Positions 27,789-35,550 of a stretch of DNA of 35,561 nt are shown piece after piece. Numbering within the stretch: the first letter of the stretch is position 1; every line of letters begins with the position of its first letter. The translations under genes were made by a program, and so were the position numbers. The notes beneath the pieces were generated by a model. That model saw only the letters and a list, made by a program, of their open reading frames with translations, was not told the DNA's origin and searched no databases. The stretch is taken from contig PFEG01000041.1 of the NCBI GenBank assembly GCA_002793885.1, positions 1-35,561 of the forward strand, in the 5' to 3' direction. The DNA comes from Candidatus Saccharibacteria bacterium CG10_big_fil_rev_8_21_14_0_10_47_8. GTDB lineage: Bacteria; Patescibacteriota; Saccharimonadia; Saccharimonadales; UBA10212.

Positions 27789-27862
27789 TTCGGGATCGTC
27801 TAATGGTAGGACACTGGGTTTTGGTCCCAGCAATCTAGGTTCGAATCCTAGTCCCGAAGCCA
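27789..27862 (+). tRNA. tRNA-Gln (anticodon UUG)
   Basis: Hand-folded cloverleaf: acceptor TTCGGGA/TCCCGAA, D arm GTCT-AATGGTA-GGAC, anticodon arm CTGGG-TTTTGGT-CCCAG and T arm CTAGG-TTCGAAT-CCTAG. Discriminator is G and CCA is encoded. U1-A72 and G73 fit Gln identity. Confidence 0.9.
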
Positions 27863-29906: not shown

Positions 29907-30206
29907 ATGAAATTACTTAAAAACCGTCCGGTAAAGCTAAATAATCGCGAAGAGCGTCTAGTTAGCGCAATGCAATTACTTGGCGATCAAACCCGCTTTA
30001 AGATCTTCAAACTCTTGCTGTCGGGAAGAGAGATGTGCGTTACTGAGATCGCCGATGCAATCGGTATTTCTGTCCCAGCTGTTTCTCAGCATTTCCGTAT
30101 TTTCGAACTGGTTGGTTTGGTTGAAAAGCAGCGGTATGGACAGAAAATCTGCTATTTACTGAAAACTGAGGACCAGTTTGTTAAAGAATTAATCCGCATA
30201 GTTTAA
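29907..30206 (+). CDS. ArsR/SmtB-family winged-helix transcriptional repressor (two cysteines)
   Basis: LLGDQTRFKIFKLLLSGREMCVTEIADAIGISVPAVSQHFRIFELVGLV is a canonical ArsR HTH core. The only Cys residues are in EMCV and KICY. Confidence 0.85.
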   Translation: MKLLKNRPVKLNNREERLVSAMQLLGDQTRFKIFKLLLSGREMCVTEIADAIGISVPAVSQHFRIFELVGLVEKQRYGQKICYLLKTEDQFVKELIRIV

Positions 30207-30226
30207 ACCTACAAGAAGGAGGGTGT

Positions 30227-30478
30227 ATGTCTAAGATAACAATTTATAGTACTGCGACTTGCGCCTATTGCAAGATGCTTAAAGGCTATCTGCAAAGCAA
30301 AGATATTGCCTACGAGGAAAAGCACGTTGACCAGGACCAGTCTCTGGCAATGGAAATGTATGAAAAAAGCGGGCAGATGGGTGTGCCATTCACTGTCATA
30401 GAGAAAGAGGACGGCAGCGAAGAAAAGATCCTCGGCTTTGACAGGCAAAGGGTTGATAGCGTATTAGGACTCGCCTAA
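30227..30478 (+). CDS. Glutaredoxin/NrdH-like small redoxin (CAYC)
   Basis: ITIYSTATCAYCKMLKGYL and the GVPFTVI cis-Pro motif. 83 aa, preceded by a strong SD (AAGGAGG). Confidence 0.8.
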   Translation: MSKITIYSTATCAYCKMLKGYLQSKDIAYEEKHVDQDQSLAMEMYEKSGQMGVPFTVIEKEDGSEEKILGFDRQRVDSVLGLA

Positions 30479-30483
30479 AGCCT

Positions 30484-30780
30484 ATGAAAGCGCTCTGGAA
30501 GAATAAAACGATTGCCGAGAGTGACGACACCATAACGATAGAAGGTAATATTTACTTCCCGCCGCATTCGGTAAATCACAACTTCTTAGAGAAAAGCGGG
30601 TTTCACACACTCTGCTATTGGAAGGGTTTGGCCAGCTATTACCATGTCAGCGACAACAAGAACCGCGATAAAAATATTGCCTGGTATTACCCTCGTCCGA
30701 CCTGGCTGTCGAAGAAAATAATGGGGAAAGACTTTTCTAACTATGTAGCCTTTGACGGACGGATGAAAGTAACCTCATGA
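30484..30780 (+). CDS. DUF427 domain protein (paralog 1)
   Basis: IAESDD...IEGNIYFPP...CYWKGLASYY...AWYYPRP...YVAF is the characteristic DUF427 motif order. Confidence 0.75.
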   Translation: MKALWKNKTIAESDDTITIEGNIYFPPHSVNHNFLEKSGFHTLCYWKGLASYYHVSDNKNRDKNIAWYYPRPTWLSKKIMGKDFSNYVAFDGRMKVTS

Positions 30781-30790
30781 GGAGTATACA

Positions 30791-31255
30791 GTGAAGAGAC
30801 GGACTATTTTCCTTATCCTAATAGTGATCTTTATTGCTTTAGGCACAGCGCTGCTGGCTGTGGCGAATATTGATGATAAGCAGAATACACAAGACGTAAA
30901 AGTAATAAACGAGGCCGCGTCAAATAATGGCGCCGTCGGTTCTTCTGCCGCTTATAGAGCTTATTCACCAGAAGCAGTTGCCTCAGCCTCGGCGCAGGAT
31001 AAGATAGTACTCTTCTTCCATGCCAGCTGGTGCCCTACCTGCCATGTACTTGATAAGGACATTACAGACAACTCAGATAAGATCCCAGCTAATGTACGCA
31101 TCCTGAAAGCAGACTTTGACAACGAAACCGAACTTAAAAAGAAGTATGGAGTCAGGCTCCAGCATACCCTTGTCCAAGTCGATAAAAATGGCCAAAAGAT
31201 TGCTTTATGGAGCCAGAGCCCAAGCTTATCTGATGTATTAAACGAGTTGCAGTAA
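30791..31255 (+). CDS. Membrane-anchored extracytoplasmic thioredoxin-like protein (WCPTC)
   Basis: GTG start after GGAG, an N-terminal TM anchor (IFLILIVIFIALGTALLAV), and the LFFHASWCPTCH thioredoxin active site. Confidence 0.8.
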   Translation: MKRRTIFLILIVIFIALGTALLAVANIDDKQNTQDVKVINEAASNNGAVGSSAAYRAYSPEAVASASAQDKIVLFFHASWCPTCHVLDKDITDNSDKIPANVRILKADFDNETELKKKYGVRLQHTLVQVDKNGQKIALWSQSPSLSDVLNELQ

Positions 31256-31256
31256 C

Positions 31257-32888
31257 ATGGAACTAGTTATCCTTTCATTGCTGGCTGGCGTGTTGACGGT
31301 CCTGTCGCCGTGCGTACTGCCTTTGCTGCCTGTTGTATTGGCAGGTTCGGCGGCTGAAAAGAGTAAACGCGCGCCACTCATAATTATTGGCAGCCTCGCT
31401 ATATCAGTTATAGCCTTTACGCTGCTCATTAGAGGTAGCACATTGTTGCTTGGCGTGCCGAGTAGCGTATGGTTGATTGTGTCTGGAGCGCTGGTAACTT
31501 TCATCGGTATCACGCTGGTATTTCCGGCAGTATGGGAGTGGATGACCATAAAATTACATTTGCAGGATGAAGCCGGGCGCCTAACAGCGATATCCAGTAA
31601 AAGAGCTGGCAATACCCGTAATGTTTTACTTGGGCTCTCGCTTGGCCCGGTCTTTACAAGTTGTAGCCCAACCTACGGCTTGATACTGGCAACTGTGCTC
31701 CCGACAAGTTTTGCGGTCGGTACGATCAATCTTATAGCTTACAGCCTTGGCTTAAGCGCAGTTTTATTAGCTGTAGCTTACGGTGGGCAGCGTGTCACAA
31801 AACGTCTCGGATGGGCCATAGACCCGATGAGCAAGTTCAGGCGTGGGCTAGGTATATTTATTGTAATAGTTGGTTTACTTATTATGACTGGACTAATTAA
31901 AGACGCTGAGACTTGGCTGGTAGACCGCGGCCTGCTCGGCACTACTAAATTTGAACAGCGGCTACTTGACTCCGACAGCGATACCAAAAATAAAGCCAGT
32001 AAAGATGTACCGGATTTCTTGCTTAAGTCTTTTCCTAAAACAGACTGGTCAAAAGCAGATCCGACGATCAGCAAAGCCTTGAGTGGTGGCCCAGGTAAAG
32101 ACGGCATTCCCGCCATAGATGAACCCAAATTCGAACCAATTGGTAATTTCAAGCATTCGGATAGCGTACAAGCGATCGTTATTGAGGATAAAGACACGGT
32201 CAGAGTCTACCCGTATAACATTCTAACTTGGCATGAAATCGTCAACGATACAGTAAATGGCAAACCTCTCGCTATCACTTTCTGCCCACTATGCGGCAGC
32301 GCCATTGTTTACAATCGAACTCTGCCAGATGGTGTCAGCACCTTTGGCGTCAGCGGAGCATTGATTGAGAGCAATATGGTGATGTTTGACCGCGGCAGCG
32401 AAACACTCTGGCAACAAAGTACTGGTCAGGCGCTGGCCGGAAGGCACTTTGGCCAAAAACTTGAACTAGTTAAATTTCAACTGCTTACTGTGGGTGAAAT
32501 AAAGTCAAAATATTCAAATGCCCAGATTATGAGCGAGAACACCGGTCACAGCCGGGATTATGCACGAAATCCATATTCTGGTTACGAAGACAGTGACGAT
32601 TTCTTCTTCAGCCCGAGCGATACTGACAAGCGCTATCCGTCTAAATCTATATTTGTAGTATTTGATGTAGATGGCACTTCGGTAGCTGTTCCCTGGCTAG
32701 AACTAAAGAACGAGCAAGTCTACGATACACAAGTTAATGGGCAAACCATAAAGCTCAGCAAGAGCGATAACGAACTGACAATTACTAAGTCCGACGGGGC
32801 AGAAATACCGTTTTATTTTGAAATGTGGTTCTCGTGGGCTGTTCAGTATCAGGACAAGGGAGTCGTGTTTGATCCAACTAAACAATAA
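31257..32888 (+). CDS. CcdA/DsbD-type transmembrane thiol-electron transporter fused to a C-terminal DUF3179 domain
   Basis: TM1 reads LSPCVLPLLP and TM4 reads FTSCSPTYG (the two CcdA cysteines). After about residue 270, GKDGIPAIDEPKF and FCPLCGSAIVY are typical of DUF3179. It starts 1 nt after the thioredoxin-like gene. Confidence 0.8.
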   Translation: MELVILSLLAGVLTVLSPCVLPLLPVVLAGSAAEKSKRAPLIIIGSLAISVIAFTLLIRGSTLLLGVPSSVWLIVSGALVTFIGITLVFPAVWEWMTIKLHLQDEAGRLTAISSKRAGNTRNVLLGLSLGPVFTSCSPTYGLILATVLPTSFAVGTINLIAYSLGLSAVLLAVAYGGQRVTKRLGWAIDPMSKFRRGLGIFIVIVGLLIMTGLIKDAETWLVDRGLLGTTKFEQRLLDSDSDTKNKASKDVPDFLLKSFPKTDWSKADPTISKALSGGPGKDGIPAIDEPKFEPIGNFKHSDSVQAIVIEDKDTVRVYPYNILTWHEIVNDTVNGKPLAITFCPLCGSAIVYNRTLPDGVSTFGVSGALIESNMVMFDRGSETLWQQSTGQALAGRHFGQKLELVKFQLLTVGEIKSKYSNAQIMSENTGHSRDYARNPYSGYEDSDDFFFSPSDTDKRYPSKSIFVVFDVDGTSVAVPWLELKNEQVYDTQVNGQTIKLSKSDNELTITKSDGAEIPFYFEMWFSWAVQYQDKGVVFDPTKQ

Positions 32889-32901
32889 TAAGGAGTAAGA
32901 T

Positions 32902-33204
32902 ATGCAAGCAATTTGGAATAACAAAGTAATCGCCGAGGCAGACAAAAAAGACCTGATATATATTGAAGGTAACTGGTACTTTCCACCCGACGCAATTAAA
33001 AAAGAATTCCTCAAGCCTACGGATAAACACACCACCTGCTTCTGGAAGGGTCTGGCCAGCTATTACCAAGTCGACGTAGATGGCGAAGTTAATGAAGACG
33101 GAGCCTGGTACTACCCCGATCCTACGCCCAGTGCTATTGATAAAGTTAAGAAAGATTTCACGGATTATGTTGCCTTTTGGCACGGCGTGGAAGTTAAAGA
33201 GTAG
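32902..33204 (+). CDS. DUF427 domain protein (paralog 2)
   Basis: IAEADK...IEGNWYFPP...CFWKGLASYY...AWYYPDP...YVAF. About half of the positions are identical to paralog 1 by hand alignment. Confidence 0.75.
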   Translation: MQAIWNNKVIAEADKKDLIYIEGNWYFPPDAIKKEFLKPTDKHTTCFWKGLASYYQVDVDGEVNEDGAWYYPDPTPSAIDKVKKDFTDYVAFWHGVEVKE

Positions 33205-33213
33205 ACTATAAAT

Positions 33214-35550
33214 ATGAACACAAAGATTGATGCCGAACATAACATTCCTACGATATTGGTTGTATTCGGTGCAACTGGCGATCTGATGGCGCGCAAGCTG
33301 GCACCAGCATTGTTAAAACTATATGAGCGGAATCTCTGCCCTGATAAGTTCGCAGTCGTAGGCTTTGCCAGGCGCGACTTGGGTGACGAAGGCTTTCGCG
33401 CCCATGTAGATAAAACCCTGAGGGCGTACCCTGCTAAGCCAGGAACATACGATAAATTTCAGCAAATTCTAAACTACCTTCGTGGTGATTTTAACGAAGC
33501 AGATGCCTATAAAAAGCTTAGCCAAAAGCTAAAGTCTATTGACGACCAGTGGGGCGTCTGTACCAATAAGCTGTTTTATCTGGCTGTGCCACCGGAGAAT
33601 TACGAATCAATCTTTACGAATTTAGCTAAATCAGGACTAACTGAGCCATGCGGAGGCGATGACGGTTGGACCAGAGTTTTAGTTGAAAAACCCTTCGGCA
33701 AGGACCTTGACCAGGCAATCAAGCTAGATAAGCTGCTCGGAACATTGTTCGAGGAAGAGCAAATCTATCGGATCGATCATTACCTGGCAAAAGAGGCCAT
33801 TCAGAACATCCTGGCCTTCCGATTCGCTAATAATTTCCTTGAAGCATCATGGGATAGTAGTGGCATTGAGAAAATTGAGATCAAATTGCTGGAAGCTATT
33901 GATATTGAAGGCCGTGGCGGGTTTTATGACAGCGTCGGCGCACTGCTGGATGTAGGCCAAAATCACCTTCTGCAAATGCTAGCGCTGGTGACAATGGATA
34001 ATCCTATTGATTTAACGTCTGATCATATCCGTGACAAGCGAGCGGAGATTATCGAATCTATTGAGCCTATCAAAGACCCATTGGCCAACACTTCCCGGGC
34101 TCAATATGCGGGATATACTTCTGAAGACAACGTTGATTCTAACTCTGTCACGGAAACGTATTTTAAAATCCAAACTAGCCTTAAGCACCCCTCGTGGCAA
34201 GGCGTCCCGATCATACTGGAAGCTGGTAAAAAGTTGCCTAAAGCCGACAAGCAGATAATCATCACCTATCGGCATCCTTCGCCTTGTCTCTGCCCGGGTG
34301 ATGTTCATTACAAGAATCAGCTGTACGTCCACATTCAGCCCGATCCGGGCATCGCGATTAGGTTCTGGTCAAGGAAGCCAGGAACCAAGGATGAGCTGGA
34401 GGAGCAGTGGTTAAAATTTGATTACCCTCTGGGCGAGACGGCTCGCTACACAGAAGAGTATACCCAGTTACTACTTGACGCCATTGCTGGCGATCAAACC
34501 TTGTTTGTCTCCAGCCGCGAAACCATGGCCAGTTGGCGTTTTATTGACCCAATTGAACGGTCCTGGCGAGCTAGCGCCGAGAACCTGTTGCGCTATTCCA
34601 GCGACAAGCCTTTGCCGGACGTACAGCCGGAACACTCAACTCTAGATATAAAGAAGGAGATCGGTGTCGTGGGCTTAGGCAAGATGGGCTATAACCTAGG
34701 CCTTCGACTTAGCGAAAAGGGCTGGAAGGTGCTGGGATTTGACACCAAGCCACCAACCCAAAACCAATTGCTCACAGTAGCTTCCTACCAGGAACTGGTT
34801 CGCAAACTGAGAGGACCACGACTGATTTGGCTAATGGTACCTTCAACTGTTGTTGACGATGCATTATTTGGCAAAGATGGATTGAGTGATATTTTGGAGC
34901 CGGGCGATATCATCATCGACGGTGGCAATTCTCACTATAAAGAATCGCAAAAAAGAGCCAAAAAATTGGCAACCAGTGGTATCGAGTTTATTGATGTCGG
35001 AGTTTCTGGCGGACCAAATGGTGCCAGAACCGGCGCATCGCTAATGATTGGTGGAAAACAAGAATTGTTTGAACAGTGGGAGCCGCTATTTGCTGATTTA
35101 AGCGTTGAAAATGGCTACAAATTCTTCGCGGGATCGGGTGCCGGTCATTTCGTTAAAATGATCCATAATGGGATAGAGTACGGCATGATGCAGGCCATCG
35201 CTGAGGGATTTACAGTGCTTAAAACAGCCAAGTTTGACCTCAAATTGGTGGATATTGCTAGTATCTACAACCACGGCAGTGTAATTGAATCCCGCTTGAT
35301 AGCCTGGCTGGAACAAGCATTCAGAGTTCATGGGGAAGGACTCGACACGGTCAGCGGCAGTGTTGGCCATACTGGCGAAGGTGAATGGACTATAGGGGCC
35401 GCCAAGCAATTTGGTATCAAAGCTAAATTCATAGAAGAAGCTCTAAATTTCCGCAAGGCCTCTGAATCTAATCCTAGTTACACCGGACAGATACTTTCGG
35501 CTATGCGTGAGCAGTTCGGAGGCCATACGGTTAAAGTGAGCAAAAAATAA
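33214..35550 (+). CDS. zwf/gnd: Fusion protein: glucose-6-phosphate dehydrogenase (N) + 6-phosphogluconate dehydrogenase, short YqeC/GndA-like type (C)
   Basis: Zwf motifs are VVFGATGDLMARKLAPAL, EKPFGKDL and RIDHYLAKE. From residue 483 (nt 34660) a Gnd-like Rossmann motif IGVVGLGKMG begins, followed by GAGHFVKMIHNGIEYGMMQAIAEGF. This is a single uninterrupted 778-aa ORF. Confidence 0.9.
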   Translation: MNTKIDAEHNIPTILVVFGATGDLMARKLAPALLKLYERNLCPDKFAVVGFARRDLGDEGFRAHVDKTLRAYPAKPGTYDKFQQILNYLRGDFNEADAYKKLSQKLKSIDDQWGVCTNKLFYLAVPPENYESIFTNLAKSGLTEPCGGDDGWTRVLVEKPFGKDLDQAIKLDKLLGTLFEEEQIYRIDHYLAKEAIQNILAFRFANNFLEASWDSSGIEKIEIKLLEAIDIEGRGGFYDSVGALLDVGQNHLLQMLALVTMDNPIDLTSDHIRDKRAEIIESIEPIKDPLANTSRAQYAGYTSEDNVDSNSVTETYFKIQTSLKHPSWQGVPIILEAGKKLPKADKQIIITYRHPSPCLCPGDVHYKNQLYVHIQPDPGIAIRFWSRKPGTKDELEEQWLKFDYPLGETARYTEEYTQLLLDAIAGDQTLFVSSRETMASWRFIDPIERSWRASAENLLRYSSDKPLPDVQPEHSTLDIKKEIGVVGLGKMGYNLGLRLSEKGWKVLGFDTKPPTQNQLLTVASYQELVRKLRGPRLIWLMVPSTVVDDALFGKDGLSDILEPGDIIIDGGNSHYKESQKRAKKLATSGIEFIDVGVSGGPNGARTGASLMIGGKQELFEQWEPLFADLSVENGYKFFAGSGAGHFVKMIHNGIEYGMMQAIAEGFTVLKTAKFDLKLVDIASIYNHGSVIESRLIAWLEQAFRVHGEGLDTVSGSVGHTGEGEWTIGAAKQFGIKAKFIEEALNFRKASESNPSYTGQILSAMREQFGGHTVKVSKK

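Follow-up and report, generated by a model that had tools for sequence, protein, structure and literature searches.

The window analysed here, a 35,561-nt stretch of saccharibacterial DNA, closes with a gene that raises three questions: does it encode two dehydrogenases of the oxidative pentose-phosphate branch in one polypeptide, how did it come to lie in this genome, and what kind of reducing power would it supply? Our main reading, to which we assign a probability of about 0.8, is that the product is a bifunctional oxidative pentose-phosphate enzyme, an old CPR fusion created by stop loss, which was laterally acquired by this lineage and displaced its native zwf and gnd. What we established as observation is the architecture of the fused gene, its intact catalytic residues, its conservation, and the pattern of its phylogeny and distribution; its biochemistry and history are argued from these below.

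Architecture and junction of the fused gene

The ORF list and translation give a single uninterrupted ATG-to-stop frame at 33214..35550 on the forward strand (778 codons plus stop), which the initial annotation had read as one polypeptide joining Zwf to a short-type Gnd. This was borne out by four Pfam domains and by NCBIfam profiles for each half. The Zwf (G6PD) half, residues 12-465 (33247..34608, +), contains G6PD_N (16-198, E 4e-56) and G6PD_C (200-465, E 6e-74), and matches the zwf profile TIGR00871 over residues 13-463 with 450.6 bits against a cut-off of 400.6, a full-length equivalog match; PDB sequence matches, fold matches and motifs agree. The short-chain Gnd (6PGDH) half, residues 482-778 (34657..35547, +), contains NAD_binding_2 (482-630, E 8e-38) and 6PGD (644-752, E 5e-20), and scores 321.3 bits with gnd_rel TIGR00872 (cut-off 297.2) and 327 with NF007161 (cut-off 271), again in accord with PDB matches and with its RX2FGXH motif. 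Both halves thus exceed NCBI equivalog cut-offs and retain their catalytic residues, and the order Zwf then Gnd, in one frame across a short variable linker, places the protein among the fused CPR type.

The linker, of about 16 residues (466-481; 34609..34656, +), was delimited by alignment, by low pLDDT and by comparison with unfused relatives. It stands in place of the canonical C-terminal GSWGP tail of Zwf, and its length and sequence differ among homologues. In an AF2 monomer model of the 778-aa protein (mean pLDDT 85) the linker alone is disordered, with pLDDT <50 at residues 470-478. Neither PDB sequence search nor fold search returned a solved structure of a fused Zwf-Gnd protein.

At the junction of the two halves the sequence has neither a stop nor a change of frame. 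A sequencing or assembly indel that joined two neighbouring genes is extremely improbable, because five independent assemblies are identical here and >120 fused homologues (52-68% identity, from many CPR lineages) have the same architecture. The identical 778-aa protein is present on contigs of five separate samples from three pipelines (two ENA, two JGI, one Logan; ERZ27293400, JGI 3300004210 and SRR6240789 carry the identical gene), and the 161 nt spanning the junction are 100% identical in all five assemblies, with their differing samples and assemblers. Out-of-frame TAG and TAA triplets do occur shortly 5' of the Gnd start, and some relatives do have separate, adjacent zwf and gnd genes, but the alternative frames at the junction offer no Zwf-like C-terminus: one is an unrelated 75-aa overlapping ORF (34418-34645) and the other terminates almost immediately.

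We also consider it very unlikely that the working form consists of separate Zwf and Gnd, made by proteolysis or by internal initiation at an AAGGAG followed by GTG at the junction. An in-frame GTG does lie 9 nt 3' of the AAGGAG, and possible cleavage of some diatom fusion proteins has been mentioned (Kroth et al. 2008), but this GTG is Val486, right before G487 of GxGxxG. A product starting there would miss strand beta1 of the Rossmann fold, and the internal start was rejected on that ground. The AAG-GAG itself is a conserved Lys-Glu of the Gnd N-terminus, present in unfused relatives too, and the open frame is maintained through >120 divergent homologues.

Catalytic residues, cofactors and the pathway

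The Zwf half matches PDB G6PDs with E 1e-85 to 1e-64, and the fold matches of its predicted model are G6PDs with target-normalised TM of 0.78-0.86. Its motifs are G19-A-T21-G-D-L, R53, E158-K-P-F-G, R186-I-D188-H189-Y-L-A-K193 and Q249-N-H251. An alignment of 25 fused homologues shows little or no variation in G19ATGDL, E158KPFG, R186IDHYLAKE, H251 and D188; the last two correspond to the catalytic His/Asp dyad of G6PD (H240/D177 in L. mesenteroides numbering). The substrate motif R186IDHYLAKE has Ala for Gly at position 192 relative to the RIDHYLGKE type. The window protein lacks the canonical Zwf tail Y-x-x-GSWGP, its profile match stopping at 278 of 296; this tail is not a catalytic feature of Zwf, and it is lost in all fused members and kept in unfused relatives and in a downstream zwf relic (below). 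Four cysteines of the Zwf half are conserved (C116, C146, C358 and C360), the last two forming an invariant CxC within P-S-P-C358-L-C360-P-G (34276..34299, +), whose alignment columns are invariant or nearly so. The CxC is confined to the clade holding the fusions, including its unfused members. From its G6PD family identity, the Zwf half is predicted to reduce NAD(P)+ with glucose-6-phosphate.

The Gnd half is about 297 aa long and has a single C-terminal hemi-domain, such that the Pfam 6PGD match spans just 1-115 of 290. Its motifs are G487-L-G-K-M-G, S598, K648, H651, N652, E655 and R765-x2-F-G-x-H771. Residues S598, K648, H651, N652 and E655 are invariant in the 25 fused homologues, and correspond to the catalytic Ser/Lys/His/Asn/Glu of 6PGDH (S128, K183, H186, N187 and E190 in sheep numbering). 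We checked this half against models of other beta-hydroxyacid dehydrogenases, and its identification as Gnd was upheld: HMM scores and catalytic block are those of a true decarboxylating 6PGDH. There is next to no chance that it is instead a non-Gnd enzyme of the HIBADH or tartronate-semialdehyde-reductase type. Such enzymes have the NAD_binding_2 Rossmann domain in common with it and their models do match weakly, but HIBADH reaches only 54 against a cut-off of 292 and tartronate semialdehyde reductase 76 against 341, as compared to 321 against 297 for gnd_rel, and the 6PGDH block GHFVK648MIH651N652GIE655YG and the substrate-binding tail are both present and invariant. The L-threonate dehydrogenase model also falls far under its cut-off. 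The tail, R765-E-Q-F-G-G-H771, conforms to the RX2FGXH motif as defined in bioRxiv 10.64898/2026.01.21.700892.

The cofactor-discriminating stretch of Gnd at beta2, V-L-G-F-D510-T-K-P-P (34729..34755, +; motif table and alignment), gives the window protein an NAD+-type pocket, D510-T-K, where many other fused homologues have the NADP+ type, N-R-S/T; the N-R-(S/T) expected at the end of beta2 in NADP+-specific 6PGDHs, for the 2'-phosphate, is absent. In Tm6PGDH the cofactor determinants are N32, R33 and T34, and N32D alone raises the NADP+ Km 460-fold (PMC5090862). With Asp510 and no Arg next to it, the Gnd half probably prefers NAD+, so that the second step would yield NADH rather than NADPH; Lys512, two positions past Asp510, might allow some NADP+ binding. 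In the Zwf half T21 and R53 align with K18 and R50 of EcG6PDH, and the pair Thr21 and Arg53, a dual-cofactor G6PDH pattern, suggests that this half can use NADP+ and probably NAD+ as well. NAD kinase could be detected neither in the window genome nor in 39 of 41 genomes from the order. A reading in which both steps yield NADPH is therefore doubtful: Asp510 occupies the position where NADP-dependent enzymes have Asn, and a NAD kinase was not detected. In NAD-kinase-poor, lactonase-poor organisms such as these, the oxidative pentose-phosphate branch may give NADH instead of NADPH.

In the proposed pathway the N-terminal half would oxidise glucose-6-phosphate to 6-phosphogluconolactone, and the C-terminal half would convert 6-phosphogluconate by oxidative decarboxylation to ribulose-5-phosphate. 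The window has no 6-phosphogluconolactonase gene, as had been noted earlier, and the sole Pgl candidate in the window genome is weak (PF01182, 37 bits; TIGR01198, 33.7, cut-off 124); neither known Pgl family was found in the other genomes with the fused gene. Lactone hydrolysis would be spontaneous, or performed by a divergent Pgl-like protein encoded elsewhere in the genome. The ribulose-5-phosphate would feed an RpiB-Rpe-transketolase cluster, whose genes lie on another contig (C61) of the window genome. Because the intermediate needs hydrolysis first, we infer that fusion pays through fixed 1:1 expression and co-localisation, and not through true channelling.

Origin, lateral arrival and gene neighbourhood

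The fusion, widespread in Patescibacteria and apparently old, seems to have arisen when the zwf stop codon was lost from a zwf-gnd pair that lay adjacent and in the same frame. Two unfused relatives look like pre-fusion intermediates: in one (G188) the zwf stop, one codon and the ATG of gnd follow each other in a single frame, and in the other (G004) the zwf stop is followed by 19 in-frame codons before gnd. Both still have a GS(Y/I)GPS tail, which is missing from the fused forms. In the Zwf tree (99*) and in the Gnd tree (99*), which are unrooted and come from a quick search, a single clade holds all 35 fused sequences. Seven unfused sequences are nested within this clade in the same unrooted, quick-search trees, which calls for several fissions or for more than one fusion.

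Among 41 sampled genomes of the family only the window genome has the fusion, while 31 have separate zwf and gnd and nine have neither. The separate genes of these 31 relatives show 34-40% identity, and the zwf and gnd of the order itself form a clade apart from the fused clade in both trees (unrooted). One kilobase downstream of the fused gene, on contigs of other assemblies rather than in the window genome's own, lies a 111-aa 3' relic of zwf with 52-58% identity to own-order Zwf and 36% to fused Zwf. On account of the sole fused gene in 41 genomes, the distant separate genes of the relatives and the native-type zwf relic, we favour a lateral arrival of the fused gene, which would have taken the place of the separate zwf and gnd native to the lineage. 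Around an anchor gene beside tRNA-Gln, a synteny comparison with two family relatives matched just that anchor and the native gnd.

There is a slim chance that the fusion was instead vertically inherited and that the relatives secondarily swapped to split genes; the nearest homologues do carry the Saccharibacteria label, and some fissions within the fused clade are required anyway. Against this, 31 of the 40 family relatives have a different, mutually related type of zwf and gnd at 34-40% identity, this type clades with other genomes of the order, and a decayed native-type copy adjoins the fused gene. Lateral displacement, the reading we prefer, would make this a clear case, in a minimal genome, of native split genes ousted by a fused one.

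Upstream of the fused gene is a same-strand cluster (29907..33204, +) with gaps of 1-20 nt, annotated by Pfam and NCBIfam: an ArsR-type HTH gene (29907-30206), a glutaredoxin-like gene (30227-30478), a DUF427 gene (30484-30780), an anchored thioredoxin-like gene (30791-31255), a DsbD_TM/CcdA-DUF3179 gene (31257-32888) and a second DUF427 gene (32902-33204). The fused gene had been placed at the end of this operon, which proved mistaken: the window contig just stops there, and longer contigs from other assemblies carry, beyond it and on the same strand, an FMN reductase, the zwf relic, an amylase and, 4 kb downstream of the fused gene, a class-I flavoprotein disulfide reductase. Glutaredoxin lies upstream of the fused gene in all three closest relatives, ArsR upstream in two of them, and FMN reductase follows in two. 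Conservation of the Grx-ZwfGnd-FMN reductase module, present on the extended contig, is confined to the nearest relatives; the suggested thiol-redox context thus holds for these and does not extend to the wider fused family. In the window's subclade the fused enzyme may be co-expressed with glutaredoxin and FMN reductase, supplying reducing equivalents.

Whether it is a dedicated NADPH generator, with two NADPH-yielding steps powering the Grx/Trx/CcdA thiol-disulfide system encoded upstream, is doubtful because of the D-T-K pocket of Gnd (D510, no Arg) and an order largely without NAD kinase. The tight cluster with genes for ArsR, Grx, Trx-like and CcdA-DUF3179 proteins, the glutaredoxin and FMN reductase genes of the relatives and the disulfide reductase downstream speak for it. 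But the relatives' modules lack the Trx-CcdA block; at 22 other fused loci phosphoglucomutase is the most frequent neighbour, with DUF427, Trx and DsbD outside the top 25 families; and a promoter/terminator scan of the extended cluster gave counts in line with chance (31 where 26 were expected, and 13 where 16 were). An outside chance goes to the proposal that the subclade enzyme is the core of a self-contained, ArsR-controlled redox-stress unit (Grx-ZwfGnd-FMN reductase) run largely on NAD(H) without NAD kinase, in which C116, C146 and C358-x-C360 would be a thiol switch or metal site by way of which the neighbouring Grx would regulate the dehydrogenase. If true, this would be an independently arisen bacterial counterpart of the thioredoxin-regulated G6PDH of plastids and cyanobacteria.

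Distribution and comparison with known systems

Initially, no characterised bacterial Zwf-Gnd fusion was said to be known. That holds in so far as the literature searched contains no biochemical study of one, but with >120 homologues it is not rare, it is already in print (PMC11237513), and a diatom counterpart has been predicted. About 16 of 400 sampled genomes of the phylum carry it; it is widespread in Patescibacteria, occurs also in some high-GC MAGs, and, when clustered at 50% identity, is represented by roughly two dozen junction-spanning sequences. Matches in Fictibacillus, Brevibacillus, Mycobacterium, Chloroflexi, Acidobacteria, Deinococcus, Nitrosomonas and others turned out to be separate genes lying side by side. 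The Zwf-Gnd fusion is thus not new, and the window gene is an ordinary case of a common one. The fused family is compact, abundant and uncharacterised, and databases name its proteins after just one of the two enzymes, which we correct here.

Several systems invite comparison. (i) G6pd-Pgd fusions of candidate-phyla bacteria and one Diapherotrites archaeon appear in 'Fusion/fission protein family identification in Archaea' (PMC11237513), where one sentence records their existence, in 60 bacterial assemblies. The window protein shares with them the order of four domains and the short-chain Gnd type; it differs in its NAD+-type D-x-x pocket, many members having N-R-S/T, in its location in a Grx/FMN-reductase module and in being the sole fused gene among the sampled family genomes. 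(ii) Phaeodactylum tricornutum gene model 54663 is a predicted G6PDH/6PGDH fusion (Kroth et al. 2008, PMC2173943; Stover et al. 2011, PMC3148214), beside which the latter authors found no further such fusion in nr in 2011; it is eukaryotic and a disputed gene model, likened here by its published description. (iii) In the G6PD::6PGL fusions (Plasmodium GluPho, Giardia, Trichomonas and metazoan H6PD) the partner is the lactonase, uniting consecutive steps 1 and 2, whereas the window protein joins G6PD to the step-3 dehydrogenase and skips the lactonase step; H6PD (8em2) matches the Zwf half with E 2e-43. (iv) The best PDB chains for the Gnd half are stand-alone tetrameric short-chain 6PGDHs, from Gluconobacter oxydans (10gw/6xeq), G. 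diazotrophicus (6vpb), M. tuberculosis (Gnd2, 8ihe/9ijb) and Geobacter (4e21), matching with E 1e-52 to 1e-55. These have in common with the window protein the single C-terminal hemi-domain, the RX2FGXH tail and an Asp ending beta2; they are free enzymes of about 330-360 aa, whereas the window domain is shorter, lacking two stretches of roughly 18-22 residues in the alignments, and has its N-terminus tethered to Zwf.

A continuous Zwf-Gnd reading frame

The fused zwf-gnd ORF runs from ATG to stop over 778 codons (33214..35550, + strand). Its Pfam domains are G6PD_N (residues 16-198), G6PD_C (200-465), NAD_binding_2 (482-630) and a 6PGD match (644-752) that covers positions 1-115 of that domain. 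The initial annotation read this as a single-polypeptide fusion of the two dehydrogenases, which is borne out, with both halves above the curated NCBIfam cut-offs: the Zwf half matches zwf (TIGR00871) at 450.6 bits against a cut-off of 400.6, and the Gnd half matches gnd_rel (TIGR00872) at 321.3 against 297.2 and NF007161 at 327 against 271. Its assignment of the C-terminal half to Gnd also held, i.e. models of other beta-hydroxyacid dehydrogenases reach 54-76 bits there, against cut-offs near 290-350.

The window is the entire contig C53 of its 788-kb genome G000 (63 contigs, 90.6% complete), stopping 11 nt past the fused-gene stop codon. The junction DNA carries TAG and TAA triplets out of frame and an AAGGAG ahead of an in-frame GTG, which raised the question of an indel artefact. 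The same 778-aa protein occurs, identical, on contigs of five different samples from three assembly pipelines, and the 161 nt of the junction are 100% identical across all five assemblies. Full-length fused homologues form >120 clusters (747-828 aa, 52-68% identity, four domains each) from Saccharibacteria and Kerfeld-, Taylor-, Nealson-, Roizman-, Harrison-, Parcu- and Peribacteria, and when a segment bridging the junction was searched exhaustively, about two dozen representatives of 50%-identity clusters covered both sides of it. On these grounds the fusion is genuine and not an indel artefact. The segment from the GLGKMG region also hits P0132, a 2447-aa protein unrelated to the fusion, at 18 distinct places, suggesting a giant protein built from Rossmann-like repeats.

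Active sites, cofactors and the lactone step

The Zwf half carries G19-A-T-G-D-L, R53, E158-K-P-F-G, R186-I-D-H-Y-L-A-K-E and Q-N-H251, all fully or almost fully conserved across 25 aligned fused proteins, and matches solved G6PDs at E-values of 1e-85 to 1e-64. Its profile match breaks off at position 278 of 296; every fused member of the alignment lacks the canonical Y-x-x-GSWGP tail and has a linker of varying length and sequence instead. Away from the chain ends, this linker is the one part that AlphaFold models with low confidence (pLDDT <50 at 470-478; mean pLDDT 85, pTM 0.66). The Gnd half opens with G487-L-G-K-M-G, has S598, K648, H651, N652 and E655, and ends in R765-x2-F-G-x-H771, the defining substrate-binding signature RX2FGXH of short-chain tetrameric 6PGDHs (bioRxiv 10.64898/2026.01.21.700892). 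Its nearest solved structures are short-chain 6PGDHs (4e21, 8ihe/9ijb, 6vpb, 10gw/6xeq). Neither sequence nor fold search found a solved structure spanning both halves, the top fold matches being G6PDs that cover ~53% of the model. Four cysteines (C116, C146, C358 and C360; window 33559-33561, 33649-33651 and 34285-34293) are invariant or nearly so within the fused clade, the C-x-C pair (C358/C360) being confined to that clade with its unfused members included; this pair may bind a metal or act as a redox switch.

In 6PGDH, N32, R33 and T34 contact the 2'-phosphate of NADP+; the single change N32D increases the NADP+ Km 460-fold, and Asp is what NAD+-preferring enzymes have at this site (PMC5090862). 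The Gnd half of the window has D510-T-K at these positions, while N-R-S/T is found in many other fused proteins, with both types present across several branches. NADP+ preference in G6PDH is set by K18 and R50, Thr18 being common in dual-cofactor enzymes (PMC4807051), and the Zwf half has T21 and R53 there. NAD kinase was not found in G000 by either Pfam model (PF01513, PF20143), and among 41 genomes from the order (G000 and 40 others, many of them 99-100% complete) it was found in just two. Taken together, these residues and the scarcity of NAD kinase indicate that the Gnd step probably yields NADH and that the Zwf step may use either cofactor.

Transketolase, Rpe and RpiB genes are grouped on another contig of the genome (C61); transaldolase was not found in G000. 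The sole lactonase candidate in the genome is a 241-aa Pgl-superfamily protein (L001, contig C24:1014-1739; Glucosamine_iso Pfam, 37 bits), which scores 33.7 against the pgl equivalog cut-off of 124. It is divergent, and its neighbours are glycosyl- and nucleotidyl-transferase genes. DevB/NagB-type lactonases are absent from five other fused-gene genomes (93-100% complete), and YbhE-type lactonases from G000 and four of those five. Since the known types are absent or far below cut-off, the lactone step is probably spontaneous or carried out by another hydrolase. Direct channelling is unlikely, as lactone hydrolysis has to come between the two active sites; the likelier gains from fusion are fixed stoichiometry and co-localisation.

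Distribution, origin and probable lateral arrival of the fused gene

Of 400 other genomes in a phylum-wide sample, 13 have a complete single-ORF match; two more are interrupted by contig ends, and one further (G183) was flagged with a stop yet proved continuous when inspected. Many others of the 400 have separate zwf and gnd. A species-representative genome collection gave 13 further loci with confirmed true fusions, Doudna-, Magasanik- and Wolfebacteria among them. Three of these 13 loci, of 64-69% GC (L048, L049, L050), carry true single-ORF fusions with ~50% identity to that of the window and come from 1.8-2.5-Mb MAGs labelled Actinomycetes, Coriobacteriia and Slackia sp.; going by these labels, the fused gene apparently crossed out of Patescibacteria. 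Candidates in Firmicutes, Mycobacterium, Chloroflexi, Acidobacteria, Deinococcus, Nitrosomonas and others were all adjacent yet separate genes.

Quick maximum-likelihood trees of each half, with 35 fused sequences in each, place all 35 in one clade (starred support of 99 in both), which contains seven unfused sequences in the Zwf tree and five in the Gnd tree. The Gnd tree is compatible with a single origin of the fusion; the starred branches of the Zwf tree require at least three changes between fused and unfused states. In one genome (G188; L135, contig C1) the zwf stop is followed one codon later by the gnd ATG in the same frame, and in another (G004; L006, contig C31) 19 in-frame codons lie between the stop and gnd; both Zwf proteins retain a GS(Y/I)GPS tail. 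These pairs are either natural intermediates one mutation from fusion or recent fissions. They illustrate how the fusion can arise, since losing a single stop codon would produce it, including a linker of the observed size.

Among 41 genomes sampled in the window's family, only G000 has the fused gene; 31 have separate zwf (34-40% identity) and gnd (35-40%), and nine, including a closed 0.7-Mb genome, lack both. In both trees the zwf and gnd of the family and order form a clade distant from the fused one. The closest fused relatives come from Saccharibacteria-labelled MAGs and Kerfeldbacteria, and synteny of the region with relatives is poor. About 970 nt past the window end, on longer contigs with the identical fused gene, lies a 111-aa ORF (13304-13639 of L014, one such contig from another assembly) that aligns with just the final 87 positions of G6PD_C (E 9e-24), shares 52-58% identity with Zwf C-termini of its own order versus only 36% with fused Zwf, and retains a Y-R-G-G-S-W-G-P tail. 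It looks like the remnant of a displaced native-type zwf. On the simplest reading, the fused gene would have come from another Patescibacteria lineage, the native zwf and gnd decaying afterwards. A tRNA-Gln(TTG) gene (27789-27862), ~0.7 kb ahead of the DsbA gene at the start of the redox cluster, is compatible with a role as integration site.

Redox neighbours and a predicted precedent

Upstream, with gaps of 1-20 nt, the gene order is ArsR-type regulator, glutaredoxin-like, DUF427, anchored thioredoxin-like, DsbD_TM/CcdA-DUF3179 fusion, DUF427. On the longer contigs the cluster extends past zwf-gnd: an FMN reductase gene begins 21 nt on, followed by genes for a 122-aa CxxC protein, the zwf relic, a 316-aa protein, an alpha-amylase, and a 418-aa class-I flavoprotein disulfide reductase with no equivalog match. 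The 122-aa protein (L014:12925-13293, directly 3' of the FMN reductase, with C-K-L-C) and the 316-aa protein (L014:13632-14582) have no family match; by eye only, the latter resembles a SIS-type sugar-phosphate isomerase.

The three closest fused relatives (64-68% identity) have the locus orders DsbA, an unannotated gap, ArsR, Grx, DUF427, DUF427, ZwfGnd, FMN_red (P0002); Grx, ZwfGnd, FMN_red (P0003); and ArsR, Grx, ZwfGnd (P0004). Because a Grx-ZwfGnd(-FMN_red) core is thus kept in this subclade, a functional tie of the fused enzyme to redox homeostasis is supported there. Among the neighbours of 22 other fused loci, phosphoglucomutase is the most frequent (5/22), Pyr_redox_2 and peroxiredoxin-type genes each occur at two, and DUF427, Trx and DsbD fall outside the 25 most frequent neighbour families; since the neighbours of the wider family differ, the redox link is not a property of the fusion itself. 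Of the proposed NADPH generator closing a thiol operon, the redox association stands within the subclade, but the cluster continues downstream and the Gnd pocket is of the NAD+ type.

No biochemical data on any G6PD-6PGDH fusion were found in the literature searched, in agreement with the earlier statement that no bacterial Zwf-Gnd fusion is known to have been characterised. The fusion is rare in that sense but not in occurrence, given the cluster, genome and locus counts. The protein belongs to a known, uncharacterised architecture, and its local story is probably one of native genes displaced laterally, together with an NAD+-type pocket and a redox module particular to the subclade. A precedent is the G6PDH/6PGDH fusion predicted in the diatom Phaeodactylum tricornutum (PMC2173943; PMC3148214), for which no counterpart was found in nr in 2011 (PMC3148214).
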